Virus record (IMG/VR): IMGVR_UViG_3300020732_000013
Span: 1-62,896 of that record
Strand: one strand, 5' to 3'
DNA length: 62,896 nucleotides
Source of the DNA: a virus
Lineage: Duplodnaviria > Caudoviricetes
Shown here: positions 31,650 through 52,373 of the stretch, piece after piece
How positions within the stretch are numbered: position 1 is the stretch's first letter
Layout: each line of letters begins with the position of its first letter
Notes under the pieces: model-generated
Told to the model about the DNA's origin: nothing
Database searches by the model: none
Seen by the model: the letters and a program-made list of their open reading frames with translations, nothing else
Made by a program: the position numbers and the translations under genes

Positions 31650-31859
31650 ATGCAGACAGATACCGCTGCGGAGTTTCTTGTCAGGAAAATCCGACAACAG
31701 CGCGAACGGATCGTGGAGAACATGACGCGAGGGATGGATTTTGAACCTTTTTATCACCGAGCCGTTGGGCAGGTGGAGGGTTTGGATTACGCCGTTGCGT
31801 TGATTAACGACACCGCAAAACGTGTCGCAAACGACGAGGAGTTGAATGACGATGAGTGA
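31650..31859 (+). CDS. Small conserved head-module protein
   Basis: GAGGAGG RBS; Y...VGQVEGL motif; sits between portal and GroES. Confidence 0.65.
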   Translation: MQTDTAAEFLVRKIRQQRERIVENMTRGMDFEPFYHRAVGQVEGLDYAVALINDTAKRVANDEELNDDE

Positions 31860-32238
31860 CATCAACGTCGATAAGACGCTCTCTGAAGCAGAGCGCAAAG
31901 CCAAGCAGTTGCCGGACCCGTCAGGGTTCAAACTGCTGTGCATGGTGCCCAAGGTTGAAGAAGAGTTTGGCGGCACGGGGATCATCAAGTCCTCGGAGTC
32001 CGTCAAAGTCGAAGAACAGACCACCATCGTCCTGTTCGTGGCGAAGGTGGGGCCGGATGCTTACAAAGATCCGACTCGGTTCCCGTCAGGGCCGTGGTGC
32101 AAGGTCGGCGACTTCGTGGTCGTTCGGGCTTACAGCGGCACCCGCATCAAGATCCACGGAACAGAGTGGAGAATCATTAACGACGACACGGTGGACGGGA
32201 CGGTCGAAGACCCCCGTGGCATCGGTCGCGCAGGATAA
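31846..32238 (+). CDS. groES: Phage co-chaperonin GroES (Cpn10)
   Basis: PSGFKLL, GGTGII, VAKVGPDAY, KVGDFV and GTRIKIHGTEWRIINDD. Confidence 0.88.
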   Translation: MTMSDINVDKTLSEAERKAKQLPDPSGFKLLCMVPKVEEEFGGTGIIKSSESVKVEEQTTIVLFVAKVGPDAYKDPTRFPSGPWCKVGDFVVVRAYSGTRIKIHGTEWRIINDDTVDGTVEDPRGIGRAG

Positions 32239-34614: not shown

Positions 34615-35517
34615 ATGGCAATTTCACGCGCACAACTCCTTAAGGAACTGCTCCCCGGCCTGAACGCTCTGTTCGGTCTTGAGTATGCTTCCTACGGTGA
34701 GGAGCATAAGGAACTGTTTGAGGTCGAGACCTCTGAGCGTTCGTTTGAAGAAGAGACGAAACTCTCGGGCTTCAACGCGGCTCCGGTGAAGAACGAAGGT
34801 CAGGCGATTGCGTACGACAACGCGCAGGAAGCATGGACCGCTCGTTACAACCACGAGACCATCGCTCTCGGCTTCTCCATCACTGAAGAAGCGATTGAAG
34901 ATAACCTGTACGACTCGCTGTCGAAGCGTTACACCAAGGCACTCGCTCGTGCTATGGCGTACACCAAGCAGTACAAGGCGGCTTCGGTTATCAACAACGG
35001 CTTCTCCAGCCAGTACAACGGTGGCGATGGCGTCCCGCTGTTCTCGACGGCTCACCCGTTGGTTTCGGGTGCGACCAACAGCAACACGATCTCCACCTCG
35101 CCTGACCTGAACGAAACGTCGCTTGAAGCGATCACGATTCAGATCGCCGGTTGGACGGACGAGCGCGGTCTGTTGATCGCCGCGAAGCCGCGCAAGTTGG
35201 TGGTGCCGCCGAGCCAGATGTTCGTTGCCAAGCGTCTTCTCGACACGGAACTCCGTGTCGGCACGACCGATAACGACATCAACGCTCTGAAGTCGATGGG
35301 CACGATCTCGGAAGGCTTCAAGGTCAACCACTTCTTGACTGACACCCACGGCTACTACGTCCTCACCGACGTGCCGAACGGTCTGAAGATGTTTGAGCGT
35401 GTTTCGCTTCAGAACAGCATGGACGGTGACTTCGATACGGGCAACGTGCGGTACAAGAGCCGCGAACGTTACTCGTTCGGTTGGTCGGATCCGCTCGGCG
35501 TGTTCGGCGTGGCCTGA
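34615..35517 (+). CDS. Major capsid protein (Mu gpT-like family)
   Basis: MAISRAQLLKELLPGLNALFG, DGVPLFSTAHP and RERYSFGWSDP; AAGGAG RBS; followed by a terminator. Confidence 0.9.
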   Translation: MAISRAQLLKELLPGLNALFGLEYASYGEEHKELFEVETSERSFEEETKLSGFNAAPVKNEGQAIAYDNAQEAWTARYNHETIALGFSITEEAIEDNLYDSLSKRYTKALARAMAYTKQYKAASVINNGFSSQYNGGDGVPLFSTAHPLVSGATNSNTISTSPDLNETSLEAITIQIAGWTDERGLLIAAKPRKLVVPPSQMFVAKRLLDTELRVGTTDNDINALKSMGTISEGFKVNHFLTDTHGYYVLTDVPNGLKMFERVSLQNSMDGDFDTGNVRYKSRERYSFGWSDPLGVFGVA

Positions 35518-35522
35518 TGACG

Positions 35523-35547
35523 AAGGGGGGCTTCAGCCCCCCTTTTT
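35523..35547 (+). terminator. Intrinsic terminator after the capsid gene
   Basis: GGGGGGC-TTCA-GCCCCCC-TTTTT. Confidence 0.85.
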
Positions 35548-38867: not shown

Positions 38868-39113
38868 ATGAGCGACCATAACGATACCCTGAAACACGGC
38901 CTCGACATTGCCTTTGCGGCAGTGGTAGGCGGAGCGTGGTTGAAACTGTTGCCAACGGTTTCAACCATTCTGGTCATCATTTGGTACCTGATCCGTATTT
39001 GGGAGTCAGATACGGTGAAGGCAATGACGGGTAGACCTATGTCCAATCAAGATTGGATTGACACGATGACCTTTCGGAAATACCGGGAGGCTCGCGATGC
39101 CGAGCGTGAGTAA
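38868..39113 (+). CDS. Small membrane protein, holin-like
   Basis: Hydrophobic segments ending in IIWYLIRIWESDTV. Confidence 0.55.
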   Translation: MSDHNDTLKHGLDIAFAAVVGGAWLKLLPTVSTILVIIWYLIRIWESDTVKAMTGRPMSNQDWIDTMTFRKYREARDAERE

Positions 39114-40041
39114 AAAGCAGCATAACTTTATGGCTGCGGTGGCGCACAACCCTGCCTTTGCTAAGAAGGCAGGGATCTCTCAGTCCGTCGGTAAGCATTT
39201 TTCCGACGCGGACAAGGGTCGGAAATTTAAAGAAGGCGGCGACGTGAAACACGCAAACGAGTTAGAAGGCAAGGCTAAGGAAACGAAGTCAATTGCCAAA
39301 GAAGAAATGAAGGCCCTGAAGCGTGGTCACGCGCCTAAGGAAATTATGGAACACGAAAAGGCGGAGCATAAGGCTATGGGCTACAAGAAAGGCGGTCATA
39401 TCGAAACCCCGAAGAAGGGTTTTGCGATGGCTGAGACCAAAGGTGGTCGCAAGCCACCGCACAGCAAGAAAGGCGAAGAAGGCGATACCAAACTGAAGGG
39501 TTTCGGTATGGGCAAGGGTCTCGGTAAGGGCCGTAAGGTCACCAAGGCGGCGACGCCGAAGGACGAGATGCCGACCAAGGGCTTTGCCATGAAGAAAGGT
39601 GGGCATGTAAAGAAAGAACATACCCAGCATATGGCGAAAGGTAAGAAGGTCATGGGTTCCCCCGCCCCTGCGATGCCGAAACTGAGCGCGAACCTTCAGG
39701 GCGCGTTGCAGGGCATGGGCGGTGGTCCCGGTGGCCCTCCGGGCGGGTCCCCGATGCCACAGCCGATGATGAAGAAAGGCGGTCACGTCAGTCATCATCA
39801 CCATCACCACTACGCCAAGGGCGGTCACATCAAGAAGGAACCGGAGTCGGGTCCGCACATGGTGCGTAAAGCCCATATGGCGTCGTCGAAGCCGAACCGG
39901 AAGGAAGATGGCATTGCGCAGCGTGGACACACCCGTGGCAAAGAAGTGAAAATGGCTCACGGCGGTCATGTTGGCTCGCATCCGTCTCGTCGCGCTGACG
40001 GTATCGCAGAGCGCGGTCACACCACTTGCAAGATTCGTTAA
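39097..40041 (+). CDS. Lys/His/Gly-rich basic protein with six xxxGG(H/D)(V/I) repeats
   Basis: MPSVSKKQHNFMAAVAHNP N-terminus; FKEGGDV, YKKGGHI, MKKGGHV x2, YAKGGHI and MAHGGHV. Confidence 0.75.
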   Translation: MPSVSKKQHNFMAAVAHNPAFAKKAGISQSVGKHFSDADKGRKFKEGGDVKHANELEGKAKETKSIAKEEMKALKRGHAPKEIMEHEKAEHKAMGYKKGGHIETPKKGFAMAETKGGRKPPHSKKGEEGDTKLKGFGMGKGLGKGRKVTKAATPKDEMPTKGFAMKKGGHVKKEHTQHMAKGKKVMGSPAPAMPKLSANLQGALQGMGGGPGGPPGGSPMPQPMMKKGGHVSHHHHHHYAKGGHIKKEPESGPHMVRKAHMASSKPNRKEDGIAQRGHTRGKEVKMAHGGHVGSHPSRRADGIAERGHTTCKIR

Positions 40042-40052
40042 GGAGTATCCAA

Positions 40053-40220
40053 ATGTCGAAGCATCACGAAAAACACCACGGTCATCACCCGAAGCACCAT
40101 GAGCCGAAGCACCACCCGGAGCATATGACTCCGCATGTGCATCATCACAAGCATGGTGGTCACGTTGAATCGCACAAGCCCCATCAGGAGCATGTGCGTC
40201 ACCACTTCCACGGGAAGTAA
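40053..40220 (+). CDS. 55-aa His-rich peptide (23 His)
   Basis: TAAGGAG RBS before ATG 40053; exactly fills the gap between neighbours. Confidence 0.75.
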   Translation: MSKHHEKHHGHHPKHHEPKHHPEHMTPHVHHHKHGGHVESHKPHQEHVRHHFHGK

Positions 40221-40571
40221 GTGATGATACCTTCACGGGGTATGGGGGCCATTAACCCTACAAAAATTCGTAGGAAGGACGCTGACGTCCCCGTGAAGGT
40301 TTATTGCGGCGGTGGAAAGATGGCGAAGGGCGGGTTGGCTTGGACTCGCAAGGAAGGCAAGAACCCGAAAGGCGGTTTGAACGCCAAGGGTCGGGCGTCC
40401 TACAACAAGGCACACGGGGCGCATCTCAAGGCTCCGCAACCGGAAGGTGGTCCTCGTCGGGATTCGTTTTGTGCGCGTATGAAAGGTATGAAGCGTAAAC
40501 TGACGAGCAAGAAGACGGCAAACGATCCGAACAGTCGGATCAACAAAAGCCTACGGGCGTGGAAGTGCTAA
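40221..40571 (+). CDS. Small basic conserved phage protein
   Basis: GGLNAKGR, LKAP, RRDSFCARM and DPNSRINKSLRAWKC. Confidence 0.75.
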   Translation: MMIPSRGMGAINPTKIRRKDADVPVKVYCGGGKMAKGGLAWTRKEGKNPKGGLNAKGRASYNKAHGAHLKAPQPEGGPRRDSFCARMKGMKRKLTSKKTANDPNSRINKSLRAWKC

Positions 40572-41303
40572 ATGACGGCTCCAGTCCTTTCCGGTACGAC
40601 CAACTTCAACCCCGTACTCAACGAGGTTGTAGAAGAAGCGTTTGAGCGTTGTGGCGCTGAGATTCGTTCGGGCTATGATTTCCGTACCGCAGCACGTAGC
40701 CTCAATCTGCTGTTCATGGACTGGGCCAACCGTGGCATCAATCTGTGGACGATGGATCTGTCGTATCAACAGGCGCTGCTCCCCGGTGTGGCGACGTATT
40801 ACCTCCCGTCCGATACGGTGGACTTGCTTGATCATGTGATCCGTACAGGATCTGACACGACGCAGCAGGACATCAACATCACACGCATTTCCAGTTCGAC
40901 CTACCTGATGATTCCGAACAAGAATGCTACGGGGCGTCCAATTCAGGTCTGGATCAATCGGTTGAGCGGTCAGACGGACGCAGCGGGTAGCACGACCACG
41001 TATCAGCCTACGATCACGGTGTGGCCTACGCCGGATACGTCCACGCAGTACACGTTCGTGGCGACGCGCCTACGTCGTATTCAGGATGCGGGCACTGGTA
41101 TTAACATTCAGGATATGTCGTTTCGGTTCTGGCCCGCGATGATGTCGGGCTTGGCCTATATGCTCTCTTTGAAGATTCCCGGCGCGATGGAGCGTACGGC
41201 GATGCTCAAAGAGATGTATGAGGAAGATTGGCAGCGAGCAGCGGATGAAGATCGCGAGAAGGCGGCAGTTCGGTTTGTTCCACGGGAAACATTCCTGAGA
41301 TAA
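40572..41303 (+). CDS. Head-tail connector/adaptor protein
   Basis: EEAFERCG, ARSLNLLFMDWANRGINLW and WPTPD. Confidence 0.7.
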   Translation: MTAPVLSGTTNFNPVLNEVVEEAFERCGAEIRSGYDFRTAARSLNLLFMDWANRGINLWTMDLSYQQALLPGVATYYLPSDTVDLLDHVIRTGSDTTQQDINITRISSSTYLMIPNKNATGRPIQVWINRLSGQTDAAGSTTTYQPTITVWPTPDTSTQYTFVATRLRRIQDAGTGINIQDMSFRFWPAMMSGLAYMLSLKIPGAMERTAMLKEMYEEDWQRAADEDREKAAVRFVPRETFLR

Positions 41304-41305
41304 CC

Positions 41306-42712
41306 ATGCCGAATCGGTTTTCATCTGGCAAATTCTCTATAGCGGAATGCGACCGCTGTGGGTTCCGTTACAAGTTGACGGACCTCAAGAATCTTGTCAT
41401 CAAGACCAAAAACGTCAGCATTAAGGTCTGTCCGTCGTGTTGGGATCCGGATCAACCGCAATTGCAGTTGGGTCTGTATCCCGTGAACGATCCGCAAGCG
41501 GTGCGCGAGCCGCGTCCTGACGTGAGTTATTACACCGCTGGGCCATTGATCGGTGGCGACGGCGGCAGTCGTGTCATTCAGTGGGGATGGAATCCGGTGG
41601 GCAATAGTAACCCCCTGCAACTCCCCGATATCACGAACGATTTGTCGGCTACAGCGAGTATCGGTACGGTAAATCCGATATCTATTTACGTCACGCCACC
41701 ATCCAATTTCTTGTTTGGTGCGGACAATGGATCTTTAGCCAATCCTATTTTGGATGCCTATGGCGTTTACATGGGCAACCCACTGGTTGGGTTTCAACTG
41801 TCTCCGGATCCTACGGTTGAGTATTACGTTCTGACTATAGATGGGGTTCCGTTTACGTTACATCCGGTCGGTACGGTGGGGTCGCAAGTGCCGGTTACGT
41901 ATTTCTTCACCAATGTGAATAATCAGTTGGGAGTTGCGCAACTTATAACAGGTTTTGTTCCCGGTATGGTGTTTCAGTCTTATGGGTACAGTTACAACAC
42001 ATTGAGTTTGGTTGCGTACAACGGTGATGGACAGCCAAGTATTACTCTGACTCTATCTGGCGCATCTGCGCAGGTGCCGGGATATGAGGCTTACGATGCA
42101 CCTACGTCTCCGACATCCGTTTGGTATACGACGGGTACACCTTATGCGCCAGATGGAATCAATTATGTTGTAGACGTTCTATTGGGATGGAGTCCTCCGT
42201 CCGATATGGGCGTAAACGGACCGGTTACGCAGTATCTCGTTAACGCTAATACGTCAACGTTGGTTACTGGAACACAAATAATTCTATACGCGCTTAATCT
42301 GACTATTCCTCAGAACGTCTCCATCTATCCGATGGATTCAGCGGGAGGAGACGGCGTTCCGTACGTTTTCAATCTAGTTCCCGAATACCAGAGTACCCTG
42401 TGTAATAGACCGTCGGCTCCACAGAATGGGTGGTACTCCGTTGGTACTCCATATCCCGATCCATATAATCCGGGGCAGCAGATAGTCGCTATCACATTGA
42501 ATTGGTCTGCCCCCGCAGTGCATCCTGAAGCGGTGATCAACTACGGCATCAACATAGCCCCTTTCGAGTCATATGGGGCCACGACAATTACTACGTCTGT
42601 TCCGTATAACGGACTGGAAGTCATTGAGTATCAGATTACCGCATTGACTGCGGCGCATACTGGTCCCGGCCCTGTGAGCGATCCACTCACTATCGTTGTA
42701 CAAATTACTTAA
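41306..42712 (+). CDS. Zn-ribbon protein with a C-terminal extension containing FN3-like domains
   Basis: CDRC...CPSCWDPDQPQ; LGWSPP..GPVTQY and LNWSAP..INY..YQITA..GP.S. Confidence 0.65.
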   Translation: MPNRFSSGKFSIAECDRCGFRYKLTDLKNLVIKTKNVSIKVCPSCWDPDQPQLQLGLYPVNDPQAVREPRPDVSYYTAGPLIGGDGGSRVIQWGWNPVGNSNPLQLPDITNDLSATASIGTVNPISIYVTPPSNFLFGADNGSLANPILDAYGVYMGNPLVGFQLSPDPTVEYYVLTIDGVPFTLHPVGTVGSQVPVTYFFTNVNNQLGVAQLITGFVPGMVFQSYGYSYNTLSLVAYNGDGQPSITLTLSGASAQVPGYEAYDAPTSPTSVWYTTGTPYAPDGINYVVDVLLGWSPPSDMGVNGPVTQYLVNANTSTLVTGTQIILYALNLTIPQNVSIYPMDSAGGDGVPYVFNLVPEYQSTLCNRPSAPQNGWYSVGTPYPDPYNPGQQIVAITLNWSAPAVHPEAVINYGINIAPFESYGATTITTSVPYNGLEVIEYQITALTAAHTGPGPVSDPLTIVVQIT

Positions 42713-42721
42713 GGTGATACC

Positions 42722-42868
42722 ATGAAAAAGCACAGTGGGCACGGCCCCAAAAATATTGAAGGCGTAACGGGTGAGGCCATGAAAAAACATGGTCGTAATC
42801 TTGCCCGTGCGATGAATCAAGCCAAAGGTAAGGGTCTGCACAAACATTCCGGCGGTCGGGGGCGGTAA
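42722..42868 (+). CDS. 48-aa basic peptide (not in the ORF track)
   Basis: MKKHSGHGPKNIEGVTGEAMKKHGRNLARAMNQAKGKGLHKHSGGRGR; AAGGTG RBS; TAATG coupling to the next gene. Confidence 0.65.
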   Translation: MKKHSGHGPKNIEGVTGEAMKKHGRNLARAMNQAKGKGLHKHSGGRGR

Positions 42869-43173
42869 TGACTAACAAATGGCAGGATTTCAAATTCTTC
42901 GGATGGGATGAAGATCCCATCGGGAAGTACAAGCAACCGGAGCCGAATCCGCGTACGGGTCGCGCCGGTCAGCAGGGATACCCTGTTGATGAGGTGGACA
43001 TGACCGGTACCAAGACCTACGGTCGTTGGATTCGTCCGCTCAATGGCGATAAGAAAGAGCGGATGGAGATTCGCGGCTGCAAAAACACGCAGCGTGGTAA
43101 GCGTTTTTACGAAGACGATCAAGATCGTAAGGCTCCGCGTACCAAGCCGCGTAAGCAGGTTGAGAACGGCTAA
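42868..43173 (+). CDS. Small basic hypothetical protein
   Basis: Coupled to both neighbours by TAATG. Confidence 0.65.
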   Translation: MTNKWQDFKFFGWDEDPIGKYKQPEPNPRTGRAGQQGYPVDEVDMTGTKTYGRWIRPLNGDKKERMEIRGCKNTQRGKRFYEDDQDRKAPRTKPRKQVENG

Positions 43174-43841
43174 TGGCTATCTCCTATACGGCGGGCACGT
43201 ACGGTACGAACAATAATCTCTGGCAGATGGTGCAGGATTACACGCAGAACACCGAACCCTCGTTCGTATTCAACATCCCGACGTTTGTCGAGGAAGCCGA
43301 GGAACGTATCTACAATACGGTCCAGATTCCGGCTTTGCGTAAGAGCGTCACGGGCAGTGTCACGACGGGGATCCCTTACCTTGGGCTTCCCGCTGATTAC
43401 CTTGCGCCGTTTGCAATGTCGGTGATTGATCCTATAACTGCCGCACAGTCCTTCATGTTGAACAAAGACGTGGAGTTCATTCGGCAGTCTTTCCCTACGC
43501 CTACGTCTATTGGACAACCGACTCATTACGCGCAGTTCGATACCGTGTCGTTTATTCTAGGTCCAACGCCAGATCAGACGTACACTGTCGAACTGCATTA
43601 CTATTACTACCCGCCCAGTATTGTGACGGCAAGTAATTCGTGGGTCGGTACTAATGCGTCCAACGTCCTTTTGTACGGTACGCTTCGCGAAGCGTACCTC
43701 TACATGAAGGGCGAACAAGACATGGTGCAGTACTACGAACAGAAGTATCAGGAAGGCATTCAGTTGCTCAAGGATCTTGCTGAAGGCAAGGGTCGCCGTG
43801 ATACGTATCGTAGTGGTCAGATTCGGATTAACCCGACATGA
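43173..43841 (+). CDS. Head-tail adaptor-like protein
   Basis: FVEEAEERI, LPADYL, GPTPD..Y.VELHYY and LLYGTLREA. Confidence 0.7.
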   Translation: MAISYTAGTYGTNNNLWQMVQDYTQNTEPSFVFNIPTFVEEAEERIYNTVQIPALRKSVTGSVTTGIPYLGLPADYLAPFAMSVIDPITAAQSFMLNKDVEFIRQSFPTPTSIGQPTHYAQFDTVSFILGPTPDQTYTVELHYYYYPPSIVTASNSWVGTNASNVLLYGTLREAYLYMKGEQDMVQYYEQKYQEGIQLLKDLAEGKGRRDTYRSGQIRINPT

Positions 43842-44053
43842 TTAATGAGATTGAAGCCGCATTGGGCAATGTGAAAGTCACCACGGTGGACAACTATTTT
43901 CACACGGCTGAAGATCTTGCTGAGATGGCGTTGAACGACATCATTACGGCAAGTGATGACGCGCTTCCTACGATCAAAGACGGCGTTAATCTGTATCGCG
44001 AAGCCATTCGGGCGCGGCTTGTCTATTACTTTGAGTTGGCGAGGAAACCCTGA
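43838..44053 (+). CDS. Small hypothetical structural-module protein
   Basis: Coupled by ATGA/TGATG overlaps. Confidence 0.6.
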   Translation: MINEIEAALGNVKVTTVDNYFHTAEDLAEMALNDIITASDDALPTIKDGVNLYREAIRARLVYYFELARKP

Positions 44054-44529
44054 TGACCGGCATCGTTCAAACTTTGACCACTTCATTCAAAGTGCAGTTG
44101 ATGTGCGCGGGGCATAACTTTGCGACAACGACTTCGCTTCCCGCTGCTTCACGGTACACCCAAGACATTTTCTTCATCGCGTTGTACTCCATCATAGGCG
44201 GTGCGTCATTGGATGCCACCACGACGGCGTATACGGCATCGGGAGAGATTTCTGGTACGGGATATACCGCTATGGGGCAGCAGTTGAATATCAGTGTGAC
44301 CCCGTCGAGTTTAGGTACACCCACTACCACCGCGTACATCAGTTTCGCGAATGTAACGTGGACGAACGCTTCGTTTAGTGCTGACGGAGCGCTGATCTAT
44401 AACACTTCTAACAGTAATGCTGCTGTGGGTGTGTTGAACTTTGGCAGCACTAAAACTGTGACTAATGGAACTTTTCAGATTCAATTCCCGACGGCGGGTA
44501 CCGGATCCTCTATCATTCAGATTGCTTAA
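44053..44529 (+). CDS. Conserved tail-associated protein
   Basis: TSFK..L..GHNF, IALY, GTGYTA.G, GALIYN and VLNFG..KT..GTF.IQFP. Confidence 0.7.
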   Translation: MTGIVQTLTTSFKVQLMCAGHNFATTTSLPAASRYTQDIFFIALYSIIGGASLDATTTAYTASGEISGTGYTAMGQQLNISVTPSSLGTPTTTAYISFANVTWTNASFSADGALIYNTSNSNAAVGVLNFGSTKTVTNGTFQIQFPTAGTGSSIIQIA

Positions 44530-44542
44530 GGAGCAATAGACC

Positions 44543-45130
44543 ATGCAAATTTACAACGTAGGCTTTCGTGCAATCGCCCCGTCTACCGGTGTGCCTTTGA
44601 TCACGCTCTTCACCAACGCGGCGGGTTCGTCCACCACGTCCACGGGCCGTTCGCTTCTGATTCTTGAAATCGACATTGAAGGCGCTGCCAACAGTTCCAA
44701 CTACACGGAATTGGGTTTGTATCGTCTGCTTGCTCCGACAGGTGCGGCGAGCAGCACCTTCACGGCGTCTACTACGTCGATTCCGCAGAACGTTGACCAG
44801 TTGACGGGTACCGGCGGCACGGCGGCTTCGTTGTCTCCGGCGGCGCAATGCACGGTGACCAACGGCGCTTTTGCTGCGGGTTCCACGTTCCCCGGTGGAT
44901 TCAGTGGTGTCAGTGCGTTCAACACCAACTCTCCCTTGCACGTTATTGGTTTGAACGTAAACGGTCAGCGTTACTTCTGGCGTGCGAACCCGAACTTGAG
45001 CAACGCGATTGTTGTTCCGGGTACGGGTGTTGTTAGCACGTCGCAGTACTCTGGCGCGATCAGCCTCGTGTCGATTGCGGCGGGTACGTCTCCGAACGTT
45101 TCGGGTCGTATCCAGTTTGCCGAACTGTAA
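44543..45130 (+). CDS. Beta-rich structural protein, candidate high-copy appendage subunit
   Basis: TAAGGAG RBS; followed by a hairpin; beta-sandwich-like sequence pattern. Confidence 0.6.
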   Translation: MQIYNVGFRAIAPSTGVPLITLFTNAAGSSTTSTGRSLLILEIDIEGAANSSNYTELGLYRLLAPTGAASSTFTASTTSIPQNVDQLTGTGGTAASLSPAAQCTVTNGAFAAGSTFPGGFSGVSAFNTNSPLHVIGLNVNGQRYFWRANPNLSNAIVVPGTGVVSTSQYSGAISLVSIAAGTSPNVSGRIQFAEL

Positions 45131-45151
45131 TCGGCGATTGTCGATCTGGTG

Positions 45152-45172
45152 GGGGCAGCATTATGCTGCCCC
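45152..45172 (+). terminator. Hairpin, possibly a weak terminator or mRNA stabiliser
   Basis: GGGGCAGCA-TTA-TGCTGCCCC followed by an interrupted T-rich tract. Confidence 0.55.
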
Positions 45173-45199
45173 TACTTCTGTTGTGTTTGGAGTTAAGCC

Positions 45200-46495
45200 A
45201 TGCTGTTACTGACTAGCACGTCGGATCTTGTCACCATCACAACCGGATCGGCTGGGACGGTACTTGTCCACACCTCATGGGTGGACAACGCATCCGGTAC
45301 GATTACGCCGGGGCGTACAGACACGCCTTCAATTACGACAGCGACTACAACCACTATTGTCGCAGCCCCTGCGGCGAGTACGCAGCGTAACGTCAAGAAG
45401 ATTTCGGTCTTCAACAGTAGCGCTACCGTATCTAACTTGATCACCATCACGCACACGGATGGTACGAACCCTATTACGCTCTTCTCCGCAACACTTGCTC
45501 CTAGCGAATCGGTGGAGATGGCAGACAGCGGCAACTTCCAATACTTCGATGCGACGGGCAAGCCGTATCAGACTACGGTATCGGGTGGTGCAGGTGCGTT
45601 CACGACCCTAACGGCTTCCAGTACCGTCACATTATCCCCCGCTAGCGCAAACGTCACGATCAGCCCTACCGGCACGGGCACGGTAACGATTAGCCCTGCG
45701 AGTACAGTGGCGATCAGTCCTACAGGCGCTTTGACGATTAACCCGACAGCAGCATCTACGCTTAATAACTTGTCTGTTGGTGCTACAACCCCGTCTACCG
45801 GTAGATTTACGTTTCTCGGCGCAGGTGTTGCGTCTTCTACGTCGTCTTACGTTACGGCAGCGGCGGGTACGGCGACTGTCGCGCCAATGGTTGTCACGGG
45901 TGGTACTAACCTGACCACAGCAGCGGCAGGTGCATTTGAGAACGATGCGATCTGTCCGTACTTCACGACCAATACGACGGATGGTCGAGCGATCATTTCG
46001 GCAATTCAGCAGTTCCGTTTAACGGCAAACGGTACAGCGATTTCTACGGTAAATAACTTTTTCGGCACTACGTCGAACATATCTTTAGTGTCTGGCGCGT
46101 ACTACGAAATTGATATCGAAATGTATTTTACGTGGACATATTCGACAGGTACCGGCATTTTGACATGGAACTTCACTAACTCCGCTGCGCCGACTTCTAT
46201 GAACATTCACGGTGAGTGGACTCCGGTGGGTGGTATCAACTCGACCACGGGTGCGTCGAATCTTTGCGTTGATATAGTGAACAGCACTTCTGCCGCGCAG
46301 ACTTTGACTACCGGCGCTATGACAACTACGAACACTCAATACGCGCGATTTAGAATTTTCTTGCATAACGGTACTGGAACTAGTTTGAAGATTCAGGTCA
46401 CACCCATAACGGGTTCTACCGTTACGCCTCTAGCGGGATCACGTTGGACTTCTCGTCGTATTCCGACGGGTAACACGGGCACGTTCGCCACGTAA
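45200..46495 (+). CDS. Thr/Ser-rich fibre-like structural protein
   Basis: Beta-rich N-domain, VTISP repeats, beta-sandwich-like C-terminus. Confidence 0.65.
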   Translation: MLLLTSTSDLVTITTGSAGTVLVHTSWVDNASGTITPGRTDTPSITTATTTTIVAAPAASTQRNVKKISVFNSSATVSNLITITHTDGTNPITLFSATLAPSESVEMADSGNFQYFDATGKPYQTTVSGGAGAFTTLTASSTVTLSPASANVTISPTGTGTVTISPASTVAISPTGALTINPTAASTLNNLSVGATTPSTGRFTFLGAGVASSTSSYVTAAAGTATVAPMVVTGGTNLTTAAAGAFENDAICPYFTTNTTDGRAIISAIQQFRLTANGTAISTVNNFFGTTSNISLVSGAYYEIDIEMYFTWTYSTGTGILTWNFTNSAAPTSMNIHGEWTPVGGINSTTGASNLCVDIVNSTSAAQTLTTGAMTTTNTQYARFRIFLHNGTGTSLKIQVTPITGSTVTPLAGSRWTSRRIPTGNTGTFAT

Positions 46496-46504
46496 GGAAC
46501 CGAC

Positions 46505-49222
46505 GTGGCAAACCCTGTCGGTATATTTGATCCGGAGTTATCGCAAACCGAATGGTTTGACGTTACAAACGTCATCCAAGGTTGGTTTGATGCGGATCTC
46601 GTGTATACCGGCGGGGTCGTTGTCCTACCCGCCGCGCTTCCGGATGATCCGTTCGATATATTCGATCAGGATCAAGCCTACGCGGCTAATGACGCAGACA
46701 CTACGGATCTGATTGTCTCTACGACATTAAATCCAACAATCCCGCAAGCACCCTACTTTATTGGCGATGATATTGTCGTTGCCGATTGGTGGGAGGACGC
46801 GGATGATCCGACGGTCATCGATGCGGAGTGGTCTGGTCCTGTAGTACCCAATGCCCCGCCTCCATTAGTCGAGGATATTTGGGATTGGGATGAACATGCA
46901 GATGAAGATTGGTATTTAGATCAAGAATTATCGTTCCTAGCATTTAAGCCCCCACCTATCGATGACTCGTGGGATTGGCATGAAGAAGTAGAAGATGATT
47001 GGAACGACGATCAGAATCCGACAAATTCTTTAGCCCCTTCGTTAACTCTCAATGATGAATGGGAGTGGTACGAAGAGATTGATGACGCTTGGGAAGCGTT
47101 CATTGATCCGAAAGAACAATGGTTACTGGACGGCCTCTATAAGGTTGAGACTTATCAACTATCCGCTACGAATACGGGCGGCTCTTTTACAGAGTATGTC
47201 GGATTCCGTTGCGTTGTCGCACAGATAACGACGTACGGTCCGGGCGGTGGCGGTGCCCTCAATAATGCGTTGTATGCGACAGGTGGCAGTGCAGGATCTA
47301 CTGTCACAGGATTCGTATTACTTTCAGGGTTAGGTACTGAGTCTTTCTCAGGTACGCTACCTCCGGGTGGCGCGGCTGCGACGCTTTACCCTAGTAACGG
47401 ACAAGACGGCGGTGCGGATACAAACACGCTGCTGACATATACCGATTCGTCCAGTGTAACGCATTCGCCCATCATGATTGGGCGATATGGGTTCGGTGGA
47501 CAGGCGGGTCCGACTGCTGCGCCTCCAACAGGGGCAGTGGCACTTCCAGCGGATGTCAATCTAACTGTTGTTGTTTCGCCCATTTACTACAACGGTGGCG
47601 CAGGACAACTGGGTGGATACAACACGGCAGTTCCTCCCGTGCCGCTGGGTGGTCGCGGCGGTTCTTCGATAGCAGAAGATTCTGCGGGTTCTCCAACTGA
47701 GAAGCCCGATCATAACTTCGCTGTACCTACGACCAATCTAGGTGACGCGGGTGGCCCCGGCGGTGGCGGCGCGGGTATTGTCGATCTAACGTCTGCGACG
47801 CTTCAAGCGGGTGTGGGCGGTGACGGCGCAGTCGTTATTGTTCTTTGGTACAACTTCCCTGCAAACCTCTTCGTCATTTACGAAGATGCGTGGAATTGGT
47901 TTGGCGATAACGATAATACCGAAGACAACTGGGAATATTACATCGACACCGAAGTTACTCTTACGAGTAACAGCGCTATTCCTAATTATCTTCTGTGTCT
48001 TGAAGACGCATGGGATTGGAACGGGGACAACGACACCGAGGACAACTGGGAATACTACATCGACACCGAAGTTACTCTTACGAGTAACAGTTATGTACCC
48101 AATAGGGCCTACATTATTGAGGATGCGTGGGACTGGAACGGAGACAACGACGATTCAGAAGATTTCTGGATGGAGGAAGAGGCTCCACCCATCCCGCCTA
48201 CAAGCCCGTATTTCATCGAAGATCCGTGGAATTGGGATGAGATCGATGAAGAAGATCTTTGGTGGATTGACGAACTTCCCGTCCCACCATTGCTCAATCT
48301 CATTGAAGATCCTTGGAACTGGGACGAGACCGACGAGGAGGACTTCTGGCAAGAGGAGCAGCAGCCTGTTGGTCCTAATGCCCCACCGTCTATAGAAGAC
48401 GTGTGGGATTGGTCGGGTGATTTGGATGATGCAGAAGACTTTTGGATGGAGGAGGAACAGCCCTCCGCCCCAGTACTCCTGCCTTATTTCATCGAAGATC
48501 CGTGGAATTGGGACGAGACGGATGAAGAAGACCTTTGGTGGGTTGATGAACCCGTTGGACCAAACTATATTTTCTTGATCGTCGAAGACGCATGGAACTG
48601 GAATGAGTCTGAGGAAGAAGACTTCTGGCAGGAAGAGCAGCAGCCTGTCGGCTTAAACGGACCTATTCTTATTGAGGATGCATGGGACTGGAACGGTGAC
48701 GGAGATGATGCGGAAGACTTCTGGATGGAGGAGTCGAACCCCACCATACCTGATTATGTCCCCGCCGCGCCTTTGGGATCCCCTGATGATTGGTATTGGG
48801 ACGAGGAAGTCGTTGAGGACGATTGGTATTGGAGCGATTCGGACCGTTCGGTTTACCCCGTTACCAAGTTCCAAGTCGATACGTTAAGCGTCAACCCTCC
48901 GGCGCAGACAACGACCGTCGCGTCTATCGGGACGGTCACCATCGCAATCGTCAGCAATATCGGAATTGTTGTCACCGGCCTTACCGCATATGCTAGAATA
49001 AGTCAAGTCAATATCTGGGGTGACATTGACGATAACCAGAATCCAAATTGGGTACCGGTTGACGAAAGTAGCCCTACGCCTCCGACGTGGACTCCTGTCA
49101 GTGAAACTTCTTCTGACCCAGTGTGGACACCGGTTAATGAGACAAGTACAACTCCTGTTACGTGGACGCCGATAGATAATTCGTCGCTCGTATCCCCCAA
49201 CTGGAAACCCGTTAAGGAATAG
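46505..49222 (+). CDS. 905-aa acidic Trp-rich repeat protein with an internal Gly-rich domain
   Basis: AAGGA RBS and GTG start; ~13 (I/V/L)EDxW(D/N)W...EDxW repeats; C-terminal WGDIDDNQNPNW and WTPV repeats. Confidence 0.75.
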   Translation: MANPVGIFDPELSQTEWFDVTNVIQGWFDADLVYTGGVVVLPAALPDDPFDIFDQDQAYAANDADTTDLIVSTTLNPTIPQAPYFIGDDIVVADWWEDADDPTVIDAEWSGPVVPNAPPPLVEDIWDWDEHADEDWYLDQELSFLAFKPPPIDDSWDWHEEVEDDWNDDQNPTNSLAPSLTLNDEWEWYEEIDDAWEAFIDPKEQWLLDGLYKVETYQLSATNTGGSFTEYVGFRCVVAQITTYGPGGGGALNNALYATGGSAGSTVTGFVLLSGLGTESFSGTLPPGGAAATLYPSNGQDGGADTNTLLTYTDSSSVTHSPIMIGRYGFGGQAGPTAAPPTGAVALPADVNLTVVVSPIYYNGGAGQLGGYNTAVPPVPLGGRGGSSIAEDSAGSPTEKPDHNFAVPTTNLGDAGGPGGGGAGIVDLTSATLQAGVGGDGAVVIVLWYNFPANLFVIYEDAWNWFGDNDNTEDNWEYYIDTEVTLTSNSAIPNYLLCLEDAWDWNGDNDTEDNWEYYIDTEVTLTSNSYVPNRAYIIEDAWDWNGDNDDSEDFWMEEEAPPIPPTSPYFIEDPWNWDEIDEEDLWWIDELPVPPLLNLIEDPWNWDETDEEDFWQEEQQPVGPNAPPSIEDVWDWSGDLDDAEDFWMEEEQPSAPVLLPYFIEDPWNWDETDEEDLWWVDEPVGPNYIFLIVEDAWNWNESEEEDFWQEEQQPVGLNGPILIEDAWDWNGDGDDAEDFWMEESNPTIPDYVPAAPLGSPDDWYWDEEVVEDDWYWSDSDRSVYPVTKFQVDTLSVNPPAQTTTVASIGTVTIAIVSNIGIVVTGLTAYARISQVNIWGDIDDNQNPNWVPVDESSPTPPTWTPVSETSSDPVWTPVNETSTTPVTWTPIDNSSLVSPNWKPVKE
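47882..48835 (+). repeat. Coding repeat array with higher-order ABC-ABC-A structure
   Basis: 35-bp exact duplicate at 47939-47973 and 48056-48090; TATTTCATCGAAGATCCGTGGAATTGGGA recurs near 48209 and 48485. Confidence 0.85.
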
Positions 49223-49224
49223 CC

Positions 49225-50694
49225 ATGTCTAGTACGTATACCTCTAACCTTGCGATCCAGTTGATGGGTACGGGCGATCAGTCCGGCGCATGGGGTGCGA
49301 CAACCAATTCCAACTTGCAGTACCTAGAAGAAGGCATTACGGGATACCTGAGTTACGCGGTCACGGCATCCAATGCGGTTACTTTGCAGTTGGGACAGGC
49401 GAGCGACCCGTCGCCCTCCGCTCGAAATATGATCGTCAATTTGACCAACGGTGGGGCTTCTACAGCCGTCACCATGACGGTTCCCGGTACGGCGTCCAAG
49501 TTGTACTTCATTTGGAACCAGACGGGGCAACAGGTCACGGTGCAAGGTTCGACGCCTACGTCAAACACTGTGGTTCTTCCTAGCGGTGCGCAGACGGTCG
49601 TGTTCTGCGACGGCGCAAACAATATCTATCCGGCGTTGGGTGCGTTGAGTCTTACGAGCCTTACCGTCTCTACGTTAACGGCGAGTACGTCGATATCCGG
49701 CGGTACGGTATCCGGTACGACAATCACAGCATCAACGCAGTTCTCCGGCCCCGGTACGGGACTGACGGGCACGGCTTCAGGTCTATCGATTGGCGGAAAC
49801 GCTGCCACGGCAACTACTGCTACGACAGCGACTTCAGCGACCACGGCGACCACGGCGACCAACGTTTCGGGCGGTACGGCGACGCTGACGGGCACGAGTA
49901 CGACCAACACGTACAACATCGGCTATCTTGAAGTCCCGCAGAACGCCAACCCGACGCTGACCACTGATACGTATGCGACTGTGGCTTCAGACAGTGGCAA
50001 ACACATTTACTACTCGGGCAGTTCGACGTTCAGTTCGACAAGCGGCGCGTCAACGGCATCTACGGTGTCTATCACGTCTGTAGCGTCTAGCGGTGGTGGT
50101 ACCCGAACGCAGTTTAACTTCACGACCCCCGGCTTCACGTTTGCTACGGGCGCGGTCGTTACGCTTACAAGTATGACTAATACAGCCTATAACGGCACGT
50201 ATACGGTCTTTAGTGCAACGTCCACTTCAGTTGTTCTTACGGTAGCGTACCAAGGATCGACGTCTGTAACAGGTACGTTGAACTACTGCCTCATAACGAT
50301 TGGCGGCACGGTGACGGGTACGCTGTATCAGTACCAAGGGCTATCGGGTACGGGGTACTCTAACGGTACGTACATTTCTGCGAGACAGAGCGGTACAGGC
50401 GGCGCGGGTACGTATCATATTTACCCGCTTCAGACGGTTACTACTACGACTGTTCTTGGTGGTCCCATCATTTCGGTGACTACCGGTATCTACAATACAG
50501 GTACGGTACTGACCATTGTTAATGACGGTAGTACAGCGGCTCCTTTGTCTATCTATTCAACCGACACGGTTTTTGGTGCGGGTACTGGTTACGTCAACAC
50601 TAGCGGTGTTCACGTACTTTCCCAATACGGTCAAGTCACCCTGCTGAAAGTCGGCTCGACTCGTTGGCAACTTAGCGGCGCGGGTGTCGTCTAA
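49225..50694 (+). CDS. Tail fibre/spike-like protein
   Basis: MSSTY..L.I.LMGTGDQSGAWG N-terminus; GNAATAT repeats; IGYLEVPQN; C-terminal WQLSGAGV. Confidence 0.7.
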   Translation: MSSTYTSNLAIQLMGTGDQSGAWGATTNSNLQYLEEGITGYLSYAVTASNAVTLQLGQASDPSPSARNMIVNLTNGGASTAVTMTVPGTASKLYFIWNQTGQQVTVQGSTPTSNTVVLPSGAQTVVFCDGANNIYPALGALSLTSLTVSTLTASTSISGGTVSGTTITASTQFSGPGTGLTGTASGLSIGGNAATATTATTATSATTATTATNVSGGTATLTGTSTTNTYNIGYLEVPQNANPTLTTDTYATVASDSGKHIYYSGSSTFSSTSGASTASTVSITSVASSGGGTRTQFNFTTPGFTFATGAVVTLTSMTNTAYNGTYTVFSATSTSVVLTVAYQGSTSVTGTLNYCLITIGGTVTGTLYQYQGLSGTGYSNGTYISARQSGTGGAGTYHIYPLQTVTTTTVLGGPIISVTTGIYNTGTVLTIVNDGSTAAPLSIYSTDTVFGAGTGYVNTSGVHVLSQYGQVTLLKVGSTRWQLSGAGVV

Positions 50695-51185
50695 TGGGCG
50701 GTGTACTCAACGTGTTGTTGACGCATGGTGGTTCCGCCAGTGGTGGCGTCACTTACAATTCCAGTTTCAGTGTCAATTCGGGGACCGCAGGTAGTACCTC
50801 TGCAACGGGGCATTCGTTTACGTACTATGGGTGGTGTCCTGATTACAATACAGGCAATTCAAACTACTTGCCTGATCCATTCGGGATGGGTTCGCTTTCA
50901 TCAGGTAGTCCTACAGGCGTTAATGGGCTTTCGGTAATCGGCGTCTATGAAGCCTCTCTGCCTGATTTGCTTACCGTGGATCGTGTCGTTGTTTTGTTTG
51001 CAGGTAACGTAACGCCAACTGTAAATAGCGTCACTATTGCCGGTACGAATAGACCATTCAATACGTTAGCCACCGTCATCAACCATACGCCTTCGGGCGA
51101 CACGGCTTGGGTGGGAACGTTGGCGACTACAGGCGTTGCAACGCTGTTCGGATCGTCGGGCGTTAAAACCGTCGTACTTACTTGA
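50694..51185 (+). CDS. Putative fibre-tip/adhesin protein
   Basis: TAATG coupling to the fibre gene; short MGGVLNVLL leader. Confidence 0.55.
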   Translation: MGGVLNVLLTHGGSASGGVTYNSSFSVNSGTAGSTSATGHSFTYYGWCPDYNTGNSNYLPDPFGMGSLSSGSPTGVNGLSVIGVYEASLPDLLTVDRVVVLFAGNVTPTVNSVTIAGTNRPFNTLATVINHTPSGDTAWVGTLATTGVATLFGSSGVKTVVLT

Positions 51186-51194
51186 GGAACTCAT

Positions 51195-51545
51195 ATGGCA
51201 ATTCTCGACTACATCAAGAACGCTCCTAAGTTCTTCGAACTCTTCAAAGAGGGTAAAGAAGTTGCGGATCCTACAACGTGGAAAAATCGCACAATTGCGA
51301 CCAATGCAATTCTTGCGCTCCTCGGCACGGCTCTGGCTCTTACCAAGGCTTTCGGTTTCAAACTGGAGTTAGACAGTGACACGCTTCAAGGTCTGGCTGC
51401 GGGTACCGTTGCTGTTGTTACTGCTATCAATGCCGTCATGCACACAATTACGTCAGCAAGGGTTGGCGTGTCATCCAACGGCGGGAGTAGTACCCCCGAA
51501 GGACCGACAGCCGACACTGGCGAATCTCCAGCAAGCGGAGTTTGA
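51195..51545 (+). CDS. Putative holin (two TM segments)
   Basis: TWKNRT followed by two hydrophobic helices; upstream of the endolysin. Confidence 0.6.
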   Translation: MAILDYIKNAPKFFELFKEGKEVADPTTWKNRTIATNAILALLGTALALTKAFGFKLELDSDTLQGLAAGTVAVVTAINAVMHTITSARVGVSSNGGSSTPEGPTADTGESPASGV

Positions 51546-51576
51546 TTTAGGTTTTACTTGTACGTTAGAGGAGTAG
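51376..51576 (+). CDS. Overprinted putative lipoprotein (o-spanin/Rz1-like candidate)
   Basis: GGAG at 51365-51368 and GTG at 51376; MTRFKVWLRVPLLLLLLSMPSC signal-like peptide; stop lies 3 nt before the next ATG. Confidence 0.45.
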   Translation: MTRFKVWLRVPLLLLLLSMPSCTQLRQQGLACHPTAGVVPPKDRQPTLANLQQAEFDLGFTCTLEE

Positions 51577-51579
51577 GAA

Positions 51580-51930
51580 ATGTCATTTTTTACGACGATT
51601 GAGAATGATCTGAGCGCGGTGAAGAAGTGGTTTGAAGGCAATCCGATTGTCCAGACCATTGAGGCGGACTTTCATGCCGCTGCCGCTGAACTGGCGAAGA
51701 TCACCGCTGCGGATCTTGAGAATGCGGTGAAGGTTGTGGGCTTGCGTATCCTGTCGGCGTACGCGACGGGCAATGCGTCGGCGGCTATCGAAGCCGGTAT
51801 CGCTGTGGCGATTACGGAGTTCAAGGCAATCGGCGCTGATATCTCGGCTAAGTCCGTGCGCACTCTGGTCACGACGATTGTGAATCAGGTTGAGGCAGCA
51901 ACGACTCCGGCTCCGGTGGTAGCGCCGTAA
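51580..51930 (+). CDS. Amphipathic Ala-rich lysis-cassette protein
   Basis: AGGAG RBS; coupled to the endolysin. Confidence 0.6.
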   Translation: MSFFTTIENDLSAVKKWFEGNPIVQTIEADFHAAAAELAKITAADLENAVKVVGLRILSAYATGNASAAIEAGIAVAITEFKAIGADISAKSVRTLVTTIVNQVEAATTPAPVVAP

Positions 51931-52373
51931 TGATGCACCGTATGAACGTCAGCCCGAACTGCGCTGCCATCACCAAGCAGTTTGAGGGTTGTCAATTGGA
52001 AGCCTACCAAGACCCCATTGGTAAGTGGACGGTTGGCTATGGTCATACTGGCCCTGACGTTTATAAGGGACTGACTATTACTCAAGACCGCGCGGATCAC
52101 CTGCTGATGTTGGATCTTCTGCTCGCGCAGAACACCGTCAACAATCTGGTTGAACCTCAGATCAACCAGAATCAGTTCGATGCGCTGTGTGATTTTGTAT
52201 TCAATTGCGGCACGGGAAACTTCCAGTCCTCGACCCTGTTGAAACTCATCAATGCAAACGATCTCGCCGACGCCGCAAAAGAATTTGTGAAGTGGGACAA
52301 AGCGGCGGGTAAACCGCTTCCCGGTTTGCTTAAACGGCGACAGGCGGAAGCCGCGCTTTTCGTTAGGGTGTAA
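51930..52373 (+). CDS. Endolysin, GH24 lysozyme
   Basis: FEG..LEAYQD..GKWTVGYGHT catalytic E-D-T; QNQFDAL.DFVFNCG; GL.KRR.AE. Confidence 0.95.
   Translation: MMHRMNVSPNCAAITKQFEGCQLEAYQDPIGKWTVGYGHTGPDVYKGLTITQDRADHLLMLDLLLAQNTVNNLVEPQINQNQFDALCDFVFNCGTGNFQSSTLLKLINANDLADAAKEFVKWDKAAGKPLPGLLKRRQAEAALFVRV

Follow-up and report, generated by a model that had tools for sequence, protein, structure and literature searches.

Does a large, almost lysine- and arginine-free protein built from repeated tryptophan-acid (Trp-acid) motifs, encoded among the late genes of a tailed phage, act by itself, or does it form a system with a small, strongly signalled gene upstream of it? This question is raised by IMG/VR record IMGVR_UViG_3300020732_000013, a 62,896-bp genome of an uncultured freshwater phage that is rated as a 99% complete virus and was analysed here at its full length (hereafter, the window). 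The two genes, both on the + strand, encode proteins of 195 amino acids (aa; 44543..45130) and 905 aa (46505-49222, with a GTG start), respectively. The original prediction, drawn from the sequence of the window, had proposed an extended scaffold whose repeats each dock a subunit. Our findings are more general than that prediction could see, in that they involve a repeat shared by a whole protein family and a gene pair that is mobile. Judging from gene content and order in viral contigs, the two-gene core travels as a unit among otherwise unrelated tailed phages, within structural gene blocks, and the large protein is a mosaic in which a constant Trp-acid array is combined with exchangeable globular domains of binding kinds. 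Our favoured interpretation, to which we attach a probability of roughly 45%, is that the two genes constitute the conserved core of a mobile virion-surface appendage cassette.

Architecture of the 905-aa Trp-acid repeat protein

The 905-aa protein contains 106 Asp and 74 Glu against 7 Lys and 6 Arg (180 versus 13; computed isoelectric point 4.05), in agreement with the earlier remark that basic residues are almost absent, and it is rich in Pro (n = 82) and Trp (n = 55). The repeat block alone (residues 456-800) holds 102 Asp and Glu, 3 Lys and Arg, and 33 Trp. Such extreme acidity would suit a protein that mimics DNA as a polyanion, or one that is ejected to counter defences, rather than a surface appendage. 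We find this explanation very hard to credit, given that the gene is encoded amid fibre-like genes and not with the ejection and internal-protein genes, which are located after 52376, that relatives of the protein are fused to lectin-type or adhesin-type domains, and that its length, Pro-rich linkers and Trp content are unlike those of known compact DNA mimics. Mimics of the Ocr and ArdA type are small, early-expressed and compact proteins whose surface charge imitates that of DNA; this identity was rejected for a 905-aa multidomain protein of the late structural block.

The protein begins with 84 residues (46505..46756; FDPEL..WFD..GWFDADL) that fall on the folded side by charge-hydropathy composition, followed by a part (46757..47134) that comprises the single-copy motif DAEWSGPVVPNAPP and three Trp-acid repeats (residues 123-200) and to which several distant profile hits align best. 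Then come a Gly-rich globular domain (47135..47869), which is a candidate adhesin module, ten further Trp-acid repeats with Pro-rich linkers (47870..48859; residues 460-780), and a C-terminal module (48860..49222) composed of a beta-rich segment to ..QVNIWG and five (Q/S)xPxW-x-P-[VI] repeats with a period of ~12 residues, ending at the stop codon. The claim of ~13 repeats, three before and ten after the Gly-rich domain, was reproduced by a regular expression, which places cores at residues 123, 153, 460, 500, 539, 572, 601, 631, 664, 694, 724, and 771 and detects two additional half-sites, as well as at the DNA level, where a 35-nt core forms a 13-copy family. The proposed ABC-ABC-A super-repeat is likewise real, because A and B units recur every 276-279 nt; the B units at 48206 and 48482 are 90% identical, and the A units at 48114, 48390, and 48669 share 72-86% identity. 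A tandem duplication of 117 bp (47918-48151, + strand, 2.0 copies; Tandem Repeats Finder score 305 with 80% matches; 88% identity over 69 nt) exists as described, but it is not very recent as supposed, given that the copies are only 80-88% identical. Contigs assembled from four sequencing runs yielded no convincing repeat-number variants: a 243-nt skip (48372-48616) is seen in a single contig with a shorter flank of only 20 letters, and a 12-letter loose end at 47899, which the four runs share, is what branching of the assembly at the 117-bp duplication would produce.

The Gly-rich block (residues 225-446) aligns with model positions 3-224 of the 226 in PF21722 (Gly_rich_2) at an E value of 4.3e-4; its score of 20.8 bits is below the Pfam cutoff of 24.3 bits, so that it is best described as PF21722-like. 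A homologue of the protein, P0003, has a precomputed PF21722 hit, and the nearest ESM Atlas clusters (scores 0.91-0.93) are viral Gly_rich_2 "minor tail proteins," with neighbours that carry PF21722. When the Gly-rich part (residues 205-460) was used as a query, no shorter relatives were retrieved. The termini differ in their conservation. The N-terminal 84 residues are kept in the homologue P0002, their place being taken by a Gly-rich domain in P0003 and in the protein of viral locus L086. The C-terminal module (..VNVWG..DD.Q.PNW with period-12 W-x-P-[VI] repeats) is kept in all three of these proteins and is also found free-standing, as proteins of 73-148 aa (P0032, P0033, P0047, P0052, and P0062); furthermore, it ends P0057, a 387-aa protein made of VTGV..G.VG repeats. 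From these sequences, the module seems to be an independent element that has yet to be named. Charge-hydropathy composition, which is a crude estimate, assigns the repeat blocks to the disordered side of the boundary and the Gly-rich block to the folded side. A full-length AF2 model, computed from an alignment of three sequences, was uninformative (pLDDT 25.2, pTM 0.18).

The Trp-acid repeat defines a protein family

Close homologues are rare: a word-indexed search of 5.8 billion proteins returned only three clusters, namely that of the window protein itself, P0002 (1142 aa, 65% identity), and P0003 (1087 aa, 43% identity). P0002 and P0003 keep the repeats and the C-terminal module and differ in their Gly-rich parts; P0002 has a large insertion, and the N-terminal Gly-rich domain of P0003 and of the L086 protein is additional to the common layout. 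A profile built from the three homologues and compared with 1.84 billion representatives retrieved 61 proteins at E <= 1e-3, most of which align at profile positions 530-780, corresponding to the repeat array. The nine hits that were examined are long, very acidic proteins with varied ends and a shared Trp-acid unit. Chance is therefore excluded as the origin of the repeat, which recurs both in homologues and in a wider protein family.

A sequence logo was derived from 393 units anchored on [DE]-D-x-W-x-[WH], an anchor that by itself fixes Asp at position 1 and Trp at position 3. The resulting core, (P)-(V/I/P)-[ED]-D-[AP]-W-D-[WH], has Glu (65%) or Asp (34%) at position 0, Ala (57%) or Pro (18%) at position 2, Asp in 55% of units after the Trp, and Trp (74%) or His (25%) at position 5, and Pro is tolerated within it. 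The core is followed by ~7 acidic residues, then, at +13 to +16, by a second aromatic residue, and finally by further acidic residues and a P/V/A-rich linker; start-to-start spacing peaks at 29-37 aa, and the number of repeats varies between 2 and 29 across the family. Among 72 family sequences examined, 54 contain three or more strict cores, 70 have a Lys plus Arg content of 0-6% (the short fragments P0033 and P0044 reach 9-10%), and every repeat-bearing member has an Asp plus Glu content of 12-29%. A second motif, SGP[IV]QxNAP, which is related to the single-copy motif of the window protein, occurs in exactly one copy in 25 of the 72 proteins. The arrays are fused to a SPRY domain (P0017), to an ArabFuran-catal-like stretch (P0007), to Gly-rich domains (the window protein, P0003, and the protein of locus L090), and to other N-terminal beta domains.

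No Pfam or PHROGs model covers the repeat. When nine family proteins were scanned against both collections, only non-repeat parts were recognised, and seven of the nine gave nothing; the 905-aa protein had no hit among PDB sequences at E <= 1, and its repeat part matched only unnamed Atlas clusters (scores 0.88-0.90). The repeats thus match no known domain, so that this ground for refuting the original prediction does not apply. In tblastn comparisons with 50,697 cultured-phage records, the 905-aa protein (low-complexity filter on), the 195-aa protein, and P0083 were all without a match, and megablast of positions 40000-52000 against phage records was likewise negative; the window protein, P0004, and P0006 as queries against viral contigs found no related loci. 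A DNA pattern for three successive W-D-W motifs occurred in at least 120 stretches of genome contigs, with no family member among the matches listed, and in 75 stretches of viral contigs, from which, with membership judged by motif count and composition, five contigs were accepted (L007, L040, L049, L048, and L075), the rest being treated as chance. A full-text literature search of limited depth found no description of such a repeat or cassette.

The logo bears on an alternative in which the repeats form a self-sufficient fibrous fold, for example, a trimeric beta structure to which divalent cations, bound by the acidic runs, would lend stiffness, and the 195-aa protein is no more than a neighbour or an anchor at the base. 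Short repeats are a common building material of phage fibres, the window gene is positioned among fibre genes, and the residues V/I (position -1), W (position 3), and W/H (position 5) alternate with polar ones, which fits a beta strand. Some A-type units, moreover, read D-W-N-G-D-G and resemble D-x-[DN]-x-D-G, the pattern of EF-hand-like calcium loops. However, loop position 6 has no conserved Gly among the 393 units, the length of the acidic run is variable, the composition of the array is on the disordered side, and neither a solved chain (sequence search at E <= 1) nor a Pfam repeat family corresponds to it. We rate a self-sufficient fold as an unlikely but serious alternative. EF-hand-like calcium loops, which call for D/N at loop positions 1, 3, and 5 and Gly at position 6 of every unit, were rejected, as only some A-type units fit and no conserved Gly follows the core.

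The 195-aa protein has a jelly-roll fold

The 195-aa protein, the product of the other core gene, has homologues in 68 clusters identified by the word-indexed search, all of them unnamed, mostly 150-175 aa long, and from contigs of up to ~63 kb; the name attached to cluster P0066 hints that the host may be a betaproteobacterium. Invariant residues in the family alignment include S37, E42, N138, G141, Q142, R143, F145, W146, R147, R189, and E194, and the loop N-G-Q-R-Y-F-W-R-x-N-P-N-L-x-N-A is almost unchanged across 20 phages. An AF2 model based on 67 sequences is confident (pLDDT 77.7, pTM 0.79) and all-beta, in line with the earlier description of a beta-rich product.

Structural comparison places this model in the broad company of jelly rolls. 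With Foldseek, nothing in the PDB matched at E <= 1e-3, and weak similarity was seen to jelly-roll capsid proteins of small viruses and to the Bacillus exosporium proteins ExsFA/BxpB; in BFVD, the best-scoring entries belong to Caudovirales and are uncharacterised (E values down to 7e-7). The top VIA-align match is 7a02_A, the spore-appendage subunit Ena1B (Z 7.8), followed at Z 7.0-7.5 by capsid jelly rolls, ExsFA/BxpB (7.2-7.5), and a haloviral turret protein (8qpg_TD, 7.0), and at Z 6.7-6.9 by phage cement and capsid-accessory chains (7dou_4, 6.7; 8h89_J, 6.9). The decoration-type matches are tied with many unrelated jelly rolls, and all are weak, with Z < 8, a range that VIA-align flags as possibly reflecting only a common arrangement. 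As modelled, the product can be called a jelly roll of a generic type, with no narrower assignment.

Length variation is visible within the gene. Contigs from three of four freshwater runs skip 84 nt (44677-44762) in frame, and one run omits 9 nt at 44570. Cluster P0064 (164 aa, 84% identity) may represent this shorter form of the gene; given also that most family members are 150-175 aa long, the window version would then carry an extra loop.

Linkage and mobility of the two genes

When the alignment of the 195-aa family was scanned against 2.9 million viral contigs, 19 loci emerged, in each of which all open reading frames (ORFs) of at least 150 aa were screened automatically for acidic, Trp-rich products. 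A same-strand acidic-Trp ORF was present in ten loci (L081, L082, L085, L086, L087, L088, L089, L090, L094, and L095). Two further cases followed from inspection. The L093 contig ends 1.8 kb after the jelly-roll gene, and a 482-aa acidic-Trp ORF (E = 1.7e-7) is located at the other end of this 93%-complete record, as expected for a permuted genome; L097 carries a truncated 427-aa ORF that was judged by eye to be a divergent member and had been missed by the protein search, the reach of which is therefore limited. Altogether, an acidic-Trp protein is encoded near the 195-family gene in 12 of the 19 loci, and the two genes are directly adjacent in L086, L090, and L095, which bears out the co-occurrence on which the original prediction hinged. 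Six of the other seven loci (L083, L084, L091, L092, L096, and L098) extend for no more than 2.2 kb downstream of the jelly-roll gene. Conversely, two of the five pattern-found contigs contain a jelly-roll gene (L007, identical to L086, and L075, identical to L088); L040 and L049 are without upstream sequence, and L048, a provirus record rated 68% complete, has a divergent member and gave no jelly-roll match.

Kinship among the phages does not explain this linkage. The portal proteins of the loci belong to different PHROGs (1216, 2662, 12, 12082, and 146), as do the large terminases (TerL; 38, 9, and 3717), so that the pairing cannot be attributed to close relatedness, and, for 17 of the 19 loci, phmmer detected just one of 21 structural proteins of the window, namely that of the 195-aa family. 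The linkage between the two families is strong, albeit not absolute.

The cassette is found at diverse sites: between TerL and portal genes (L081), before TerL (L094), between portal and head protease genes (L085), and after the portal gene (L088); in the window, as in L086 and L096, the jelly-roll gene comes after tail adaptor genes. The window cassette is located between adaptor and lysis genes. The nearest cultured phage found, the lake isolate DSL-LC04, has a matching layout, with an adaptor, a homologue of the 158-aa gene of the window, fibre and lectin genes, holin, endolysin, and stabilization protein, so that the cassette of the window occupies the position of the DSL-LC04 fibre genes. 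Since DSL-LC04 has no homologue of the 195-aa or the 905-aa gene, the cassette is an accessory insert of the tail-fibre region in this lineage.

Between the two core genes lie from zero (L086, L090, and L095) to four genes, which are K/R-poor and not conserved across lineages. The window has one, a 431-aa fibre-like gene (45200..46495, + strand), the product of which has no Pfam or PHROG hit. Noted originally as a fibre-like gene that follows the 195-aa gene, it is present in L004/L005 and absent from L086, L090, and L095, and is thus an optional, lineage-specific cassette member rather than a component of the conserved core. L085 contains two acidic-Trp genes, one upstream (7780-8814) and one downstream (16552-18831) of the jelly-roll gene, and the acidic-Trp gene of L087 (6839-8761) is upstream in the available sequence; these upstream-type proteins end in ..NAWLG(Y/F)RT..GGG(I/V)(Y/W), like P0011. 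L085 additionally encodes a portal-like protein of 1171 aa (1829-5341, +), residues 987-1144 of which match an ADP-ribosyltransferase-domain PHROG (E = 4.8e-11).

Expression signals and the relative amounts of the two proteins

The 195-aa gene was predicted to share the expression signature of the major capsid gene, and this held at both ends of the gene. An AAGGAG ribosome-binding site (44528..44533, +) lies 9 nt before its ATG, and the identical hexamer precedes the capsid gene; a G+C-rich terminator-like hairpin (45148..45176, +; 13 pairs, of which 8 are G-C; -25.8 kcal/mol) follows it, as a hairpin at 35525-35541 follows the capsid gene. These signals are recurrent. Across 20 loci, the best local hairpin at most 90 nt after the jelly-roll gene has an energy of -17.4 to -34.2 kcal/mol, exceeding the control median in 19 loci and all 20 random windows from the same locus in 12. 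AGGAG precedes the ATG in 9 of 15 jelly-roll genes inspected, versus none of the ten acidic-Trp genes, the starts of which were called automatically and are GTG in four cases. The 905-aa gene has a weaker site, AAGGAA, in addition to its GTG start. On the simplest reading of these signals, much more jelly-roll than repeat protein would be made.

This putative excess, together with the linkage and adjacency of the two genes, would be compatible with a Trp-acid array that is a ruler or docking strip, each ~31-33-aa unit of which binds one jelly-roll subunit or oligomer, repeat number setting filament length or valency. A short conserved core with variable Pro-rich linkers is typical of linear docking motifs, and the jelly-roll family, although K/R-poor elsewhere, retains R143, R147, and R189 without variation, as well as an aromatic Y-F-W cluster, a patch that might complement the E-D-x-W-D-W core. 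In its full form, the jelly roll would be strung through this patch into a bead-on-string filament with a repeat-encoded length and valency and an exchangeable adhesin tip. We consider both the docking strip and the filament rather improbable. The repeat number (2-29) has no visible correlate: in nine cassettes, it bears no relation to the summed size of the intervening fibre genes, which is only a proxy for length, and L086 has 14 loose-anchor cores and no intervening gene at all. Close relatives hold 14-15 loose-anchor cores (12-13 in the window) although their Gly-rich domains vary, the array can be interrupted by globular domains, as in the window, and the jelly-roll motif is invariant even in L099, with no acidic-Trp gene in view.

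A proposed tether on the virion surface

In the interpretation that we favour, the jelly-roll protein would be produced in excess and would serve as a particle-bound partner or anchor, whereas the 905-aa protein would be a rare, almost K/R-free, polyacidic, extended tether that holds out an adhesin-type domain, represented in the window by the Gly_rich_2-like centre. The Trp-acid cores, in an extended rather than a globular conformation, would act as repeated contact sites. Because phages with presumably different hosts all conserve the core, the ligand of the core should be constant, that is, either phage-encoded or universal, such as cations. The most economical candidate would be a conserved phage-encoded protein such as the co-travelling jelly roll, which, with its invariant Arg/aromatic loop in an otherwise K/R-poor protein, would be the obvious candidate partner. 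Given that the window cassette lies in the tail-fibre region, between adaptor and lysis genes, a tail-side fibre is its likeliest location in this phage.

Several points weigh against this interpretation. Virion location and copy numbers are deduced from gene order and expression signals, the latter including the comparison with automatically called acidic-Trp starts, and the extended, non-globular state of the array is read from composition and motif pattern. Locus L099, with 4.4 kb of downstream sequence in a 62%-complete record, gave no acidic-Trp hit, and, conversely, the records L049, L048, L040, and L044 (21-68% complete) contain acidic-Trp-like proteins or pattern hits and no match to the 195-aa family. 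Finally, the cassette is among head genes in several phages, including L085, and L049 has the repeat gene followed by a 335-aa gene and the capsid gene, so that a head location is possible.

These last observations favour an alternative in which the cassette decorates the head, with the 195-aa jelly roll as cement or decoration of the capsid and, attached to it, the acidic-Trp protein as a head fibre or surface brush. The placement between portal and protease genes in L085 and after the portal gene in L088 would suit such a role, as would the L049 order, in which the 335-aa gene has weak coiled-coil hits and the next gene encodes the major head protein. The capsid-gene-like expression signals of the jelly-roll gene and its generic likeness to the cement, turret, and accessory chains 7dou_4, 8qpg_TD, and 8h89_J point in the same direction. 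In contrast, tail adaptor genes lie ahead of the jelly-roll gene in L086, L096, and the window, the window cassette precedes the lysis genes at the fibre-gene position of DSL-LC04, and the structural matches, all below Z 8, may reflect only a common arrangement. On balance, we regard head decoration as an unlikely but serious alternative.

Comparison with known systems

The cassette belongs to none of the systems with which we compared it. In its proposed function, it resembles modular tail fibres and receptor-binding proteins, in which exchangeable adhesin domains are combined with a conserved part for attachment: the window cassette is situated in the tail module, fibre-like genes flank the 905-aa ORF, the K/R-poor neighbours are rich in S, T, G, and A, variable globular domains are combined with a constant part, and the Gly-rich domain resembles the viral "minor tail protein" clusters. 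However, the constant part here is a hyper-acidic Trp array with Pro-rich linkers, for which Pfam and PHROGs contain no fibre repeat, the globular domains are N-terminal or central, and a dedicated small jelly-roll gene co-travels upstream. The exosporium proteins ExsFA/BxpB (7r1m, 8d02, and 9h3d) offer a different analogy, since there too a small jelly roll is involved, which docks the terminal peptide of a long filament protein (as the title of 9h3d_E indicates). They rank among the best structural matches (106-108 residues, root-mean-square deviation 2.8-3.0), yet with 6-8% identity and Z below 8 the likeness is that of a common jelly-roll arrangement and not shown homology; furthermore, the candidate docking elements of the phage protein are repeated 2-29 times instead of forming a single terminus, and a spore system is compared with a phage system.

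Molecular rulers, such as phage tape-measure proteins and nebulin, use repeat units of ~30-35 aa, one per subunit, and the array resembles them in unit size and in the idea of one unit per subunit. It differs in being Pro-rich and acidic, not helical by composition, and in having no length correlate that we could find. Tape-measure proteins are largely alpha-helical, belong to long-tailed phages, and are encoded between tail chaperone and distal tail genes; the nature of the array, the podovirus-type SU10 adaptor, and the lack of a tape-measure hit among the window proteins scanned with PHROGs and Pfam led us to reject this identity. Tryptophan-acidic docking motifs in disordered acidic regions, for example, the cargo motifs recognised by kinesin light chain, likewise place a short, conserved Trp core among acidic residues and repeat it with variable linkers. 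The phage core is distinct ([ED]-D-[AP]-W-x-[WH]), its setting would be an extracellular virion, and no known receptor domain accompanies it. Capsid decoration and cement proteins, of which lambda gpD is an example, are similar in that the jelly roll is a small, apparently highly expressed beta protein, sometimes encoded between portal and capsid genes. Nevertheless, the window gene comes after the tail adaptor, the fold match to the KHP40 cement (7dou_4) and HFTV1 turret (8qpg_TD) proteins is weak (Z 6.7-7.0), and no decoration protein is known to be paired with an acidic repeat protein.

Late genes of the phage

The late genes are all on the + strand. TerL (27367-28905) and portal (28906-31638) genes are followed by a 130-aa gene (31846-32238) with similarity (E = 8e-8) to a PHROG that bears the annotation co-chaperonin GroES and by the major capsid gene (34615-35517; Phage_capsid_4, phrog_371). 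Two SU10-adaptor-like genes, one weak (40572-41303, E = 5.5e-5) and one strong (43173-43841, E = 5e-24), are separated by a 468-aa and a 101-aa gene; with its SU10-type adaptor, the phage looks podovirus-like. Next comes a run of K/R-poor genes (44053-51185) that includes the 195-, 431-, and 905-aa genes, the proteins of which contain 3-14 Lys plus Arg each, compared with 28 in the 300 aa of the capsid protein; in the cassettes of other loci, these residues amount to 1-5%. The run is succeeded by small membrane-type genes and a lysozyme-like gene (51930-52373), assigned from its own sequence rather than from a family scan, beyond which lies a gene for a protein of 907 aa that is homologous to proteins named "stabilization" or "needle head". 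The DNA was listed for 24 DNA sequencing runs, from freshwater, and for no RNA run.

Two other regions of the window deserve mention. Before the first adaptor-like gene, a Lys/His/Gly-rich protein of 314 aa (39097-40041, +) contains recurrent KKGGH(I/V) motifs and a run of six His, and only its residues 1 to 46-63 match PHROG virion-protein families; judging from composition, it could be a metal-binding or DNA-binding internal protein. Its gene is overlapped at the end by a 64-aa His-rich ORF (40026-40220, +). Open frames are present at both ends of the record (2-6112, more than 2036 aa, and 62509-62895, both +) and may be one giant gene that spans the ends of a permuted genome; a PHROG scan of the 2036-aa part at the record start found no match.

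Implications for phage appendages

Receptor-binding appendages decide the host range of phages, and those of uncultured freshwater phages are almost unknown. The cassette described here is probably a virion appendage or fibre made from two undescribed families, one of acidic Trp-repeat proteins and one of small jelly-roll proteins, that move together between unrelated phages along with swappable lectin-like or Gly-rich domains. If the array were a true one-per-subunit ruler, it would represent a new assembly principle for phage fibres, nebulin-like and contained in a horizontally mobile cassette. Should the two proteins bind each other as we propose, the pair would be a portable anchor-plus-tether for the display of adhesins on virions, would offer a case in which multivalent, extracellular Trp-acid docking can be tested, and would help to annotate thousands of "hypothetical" genes in metagenomes.

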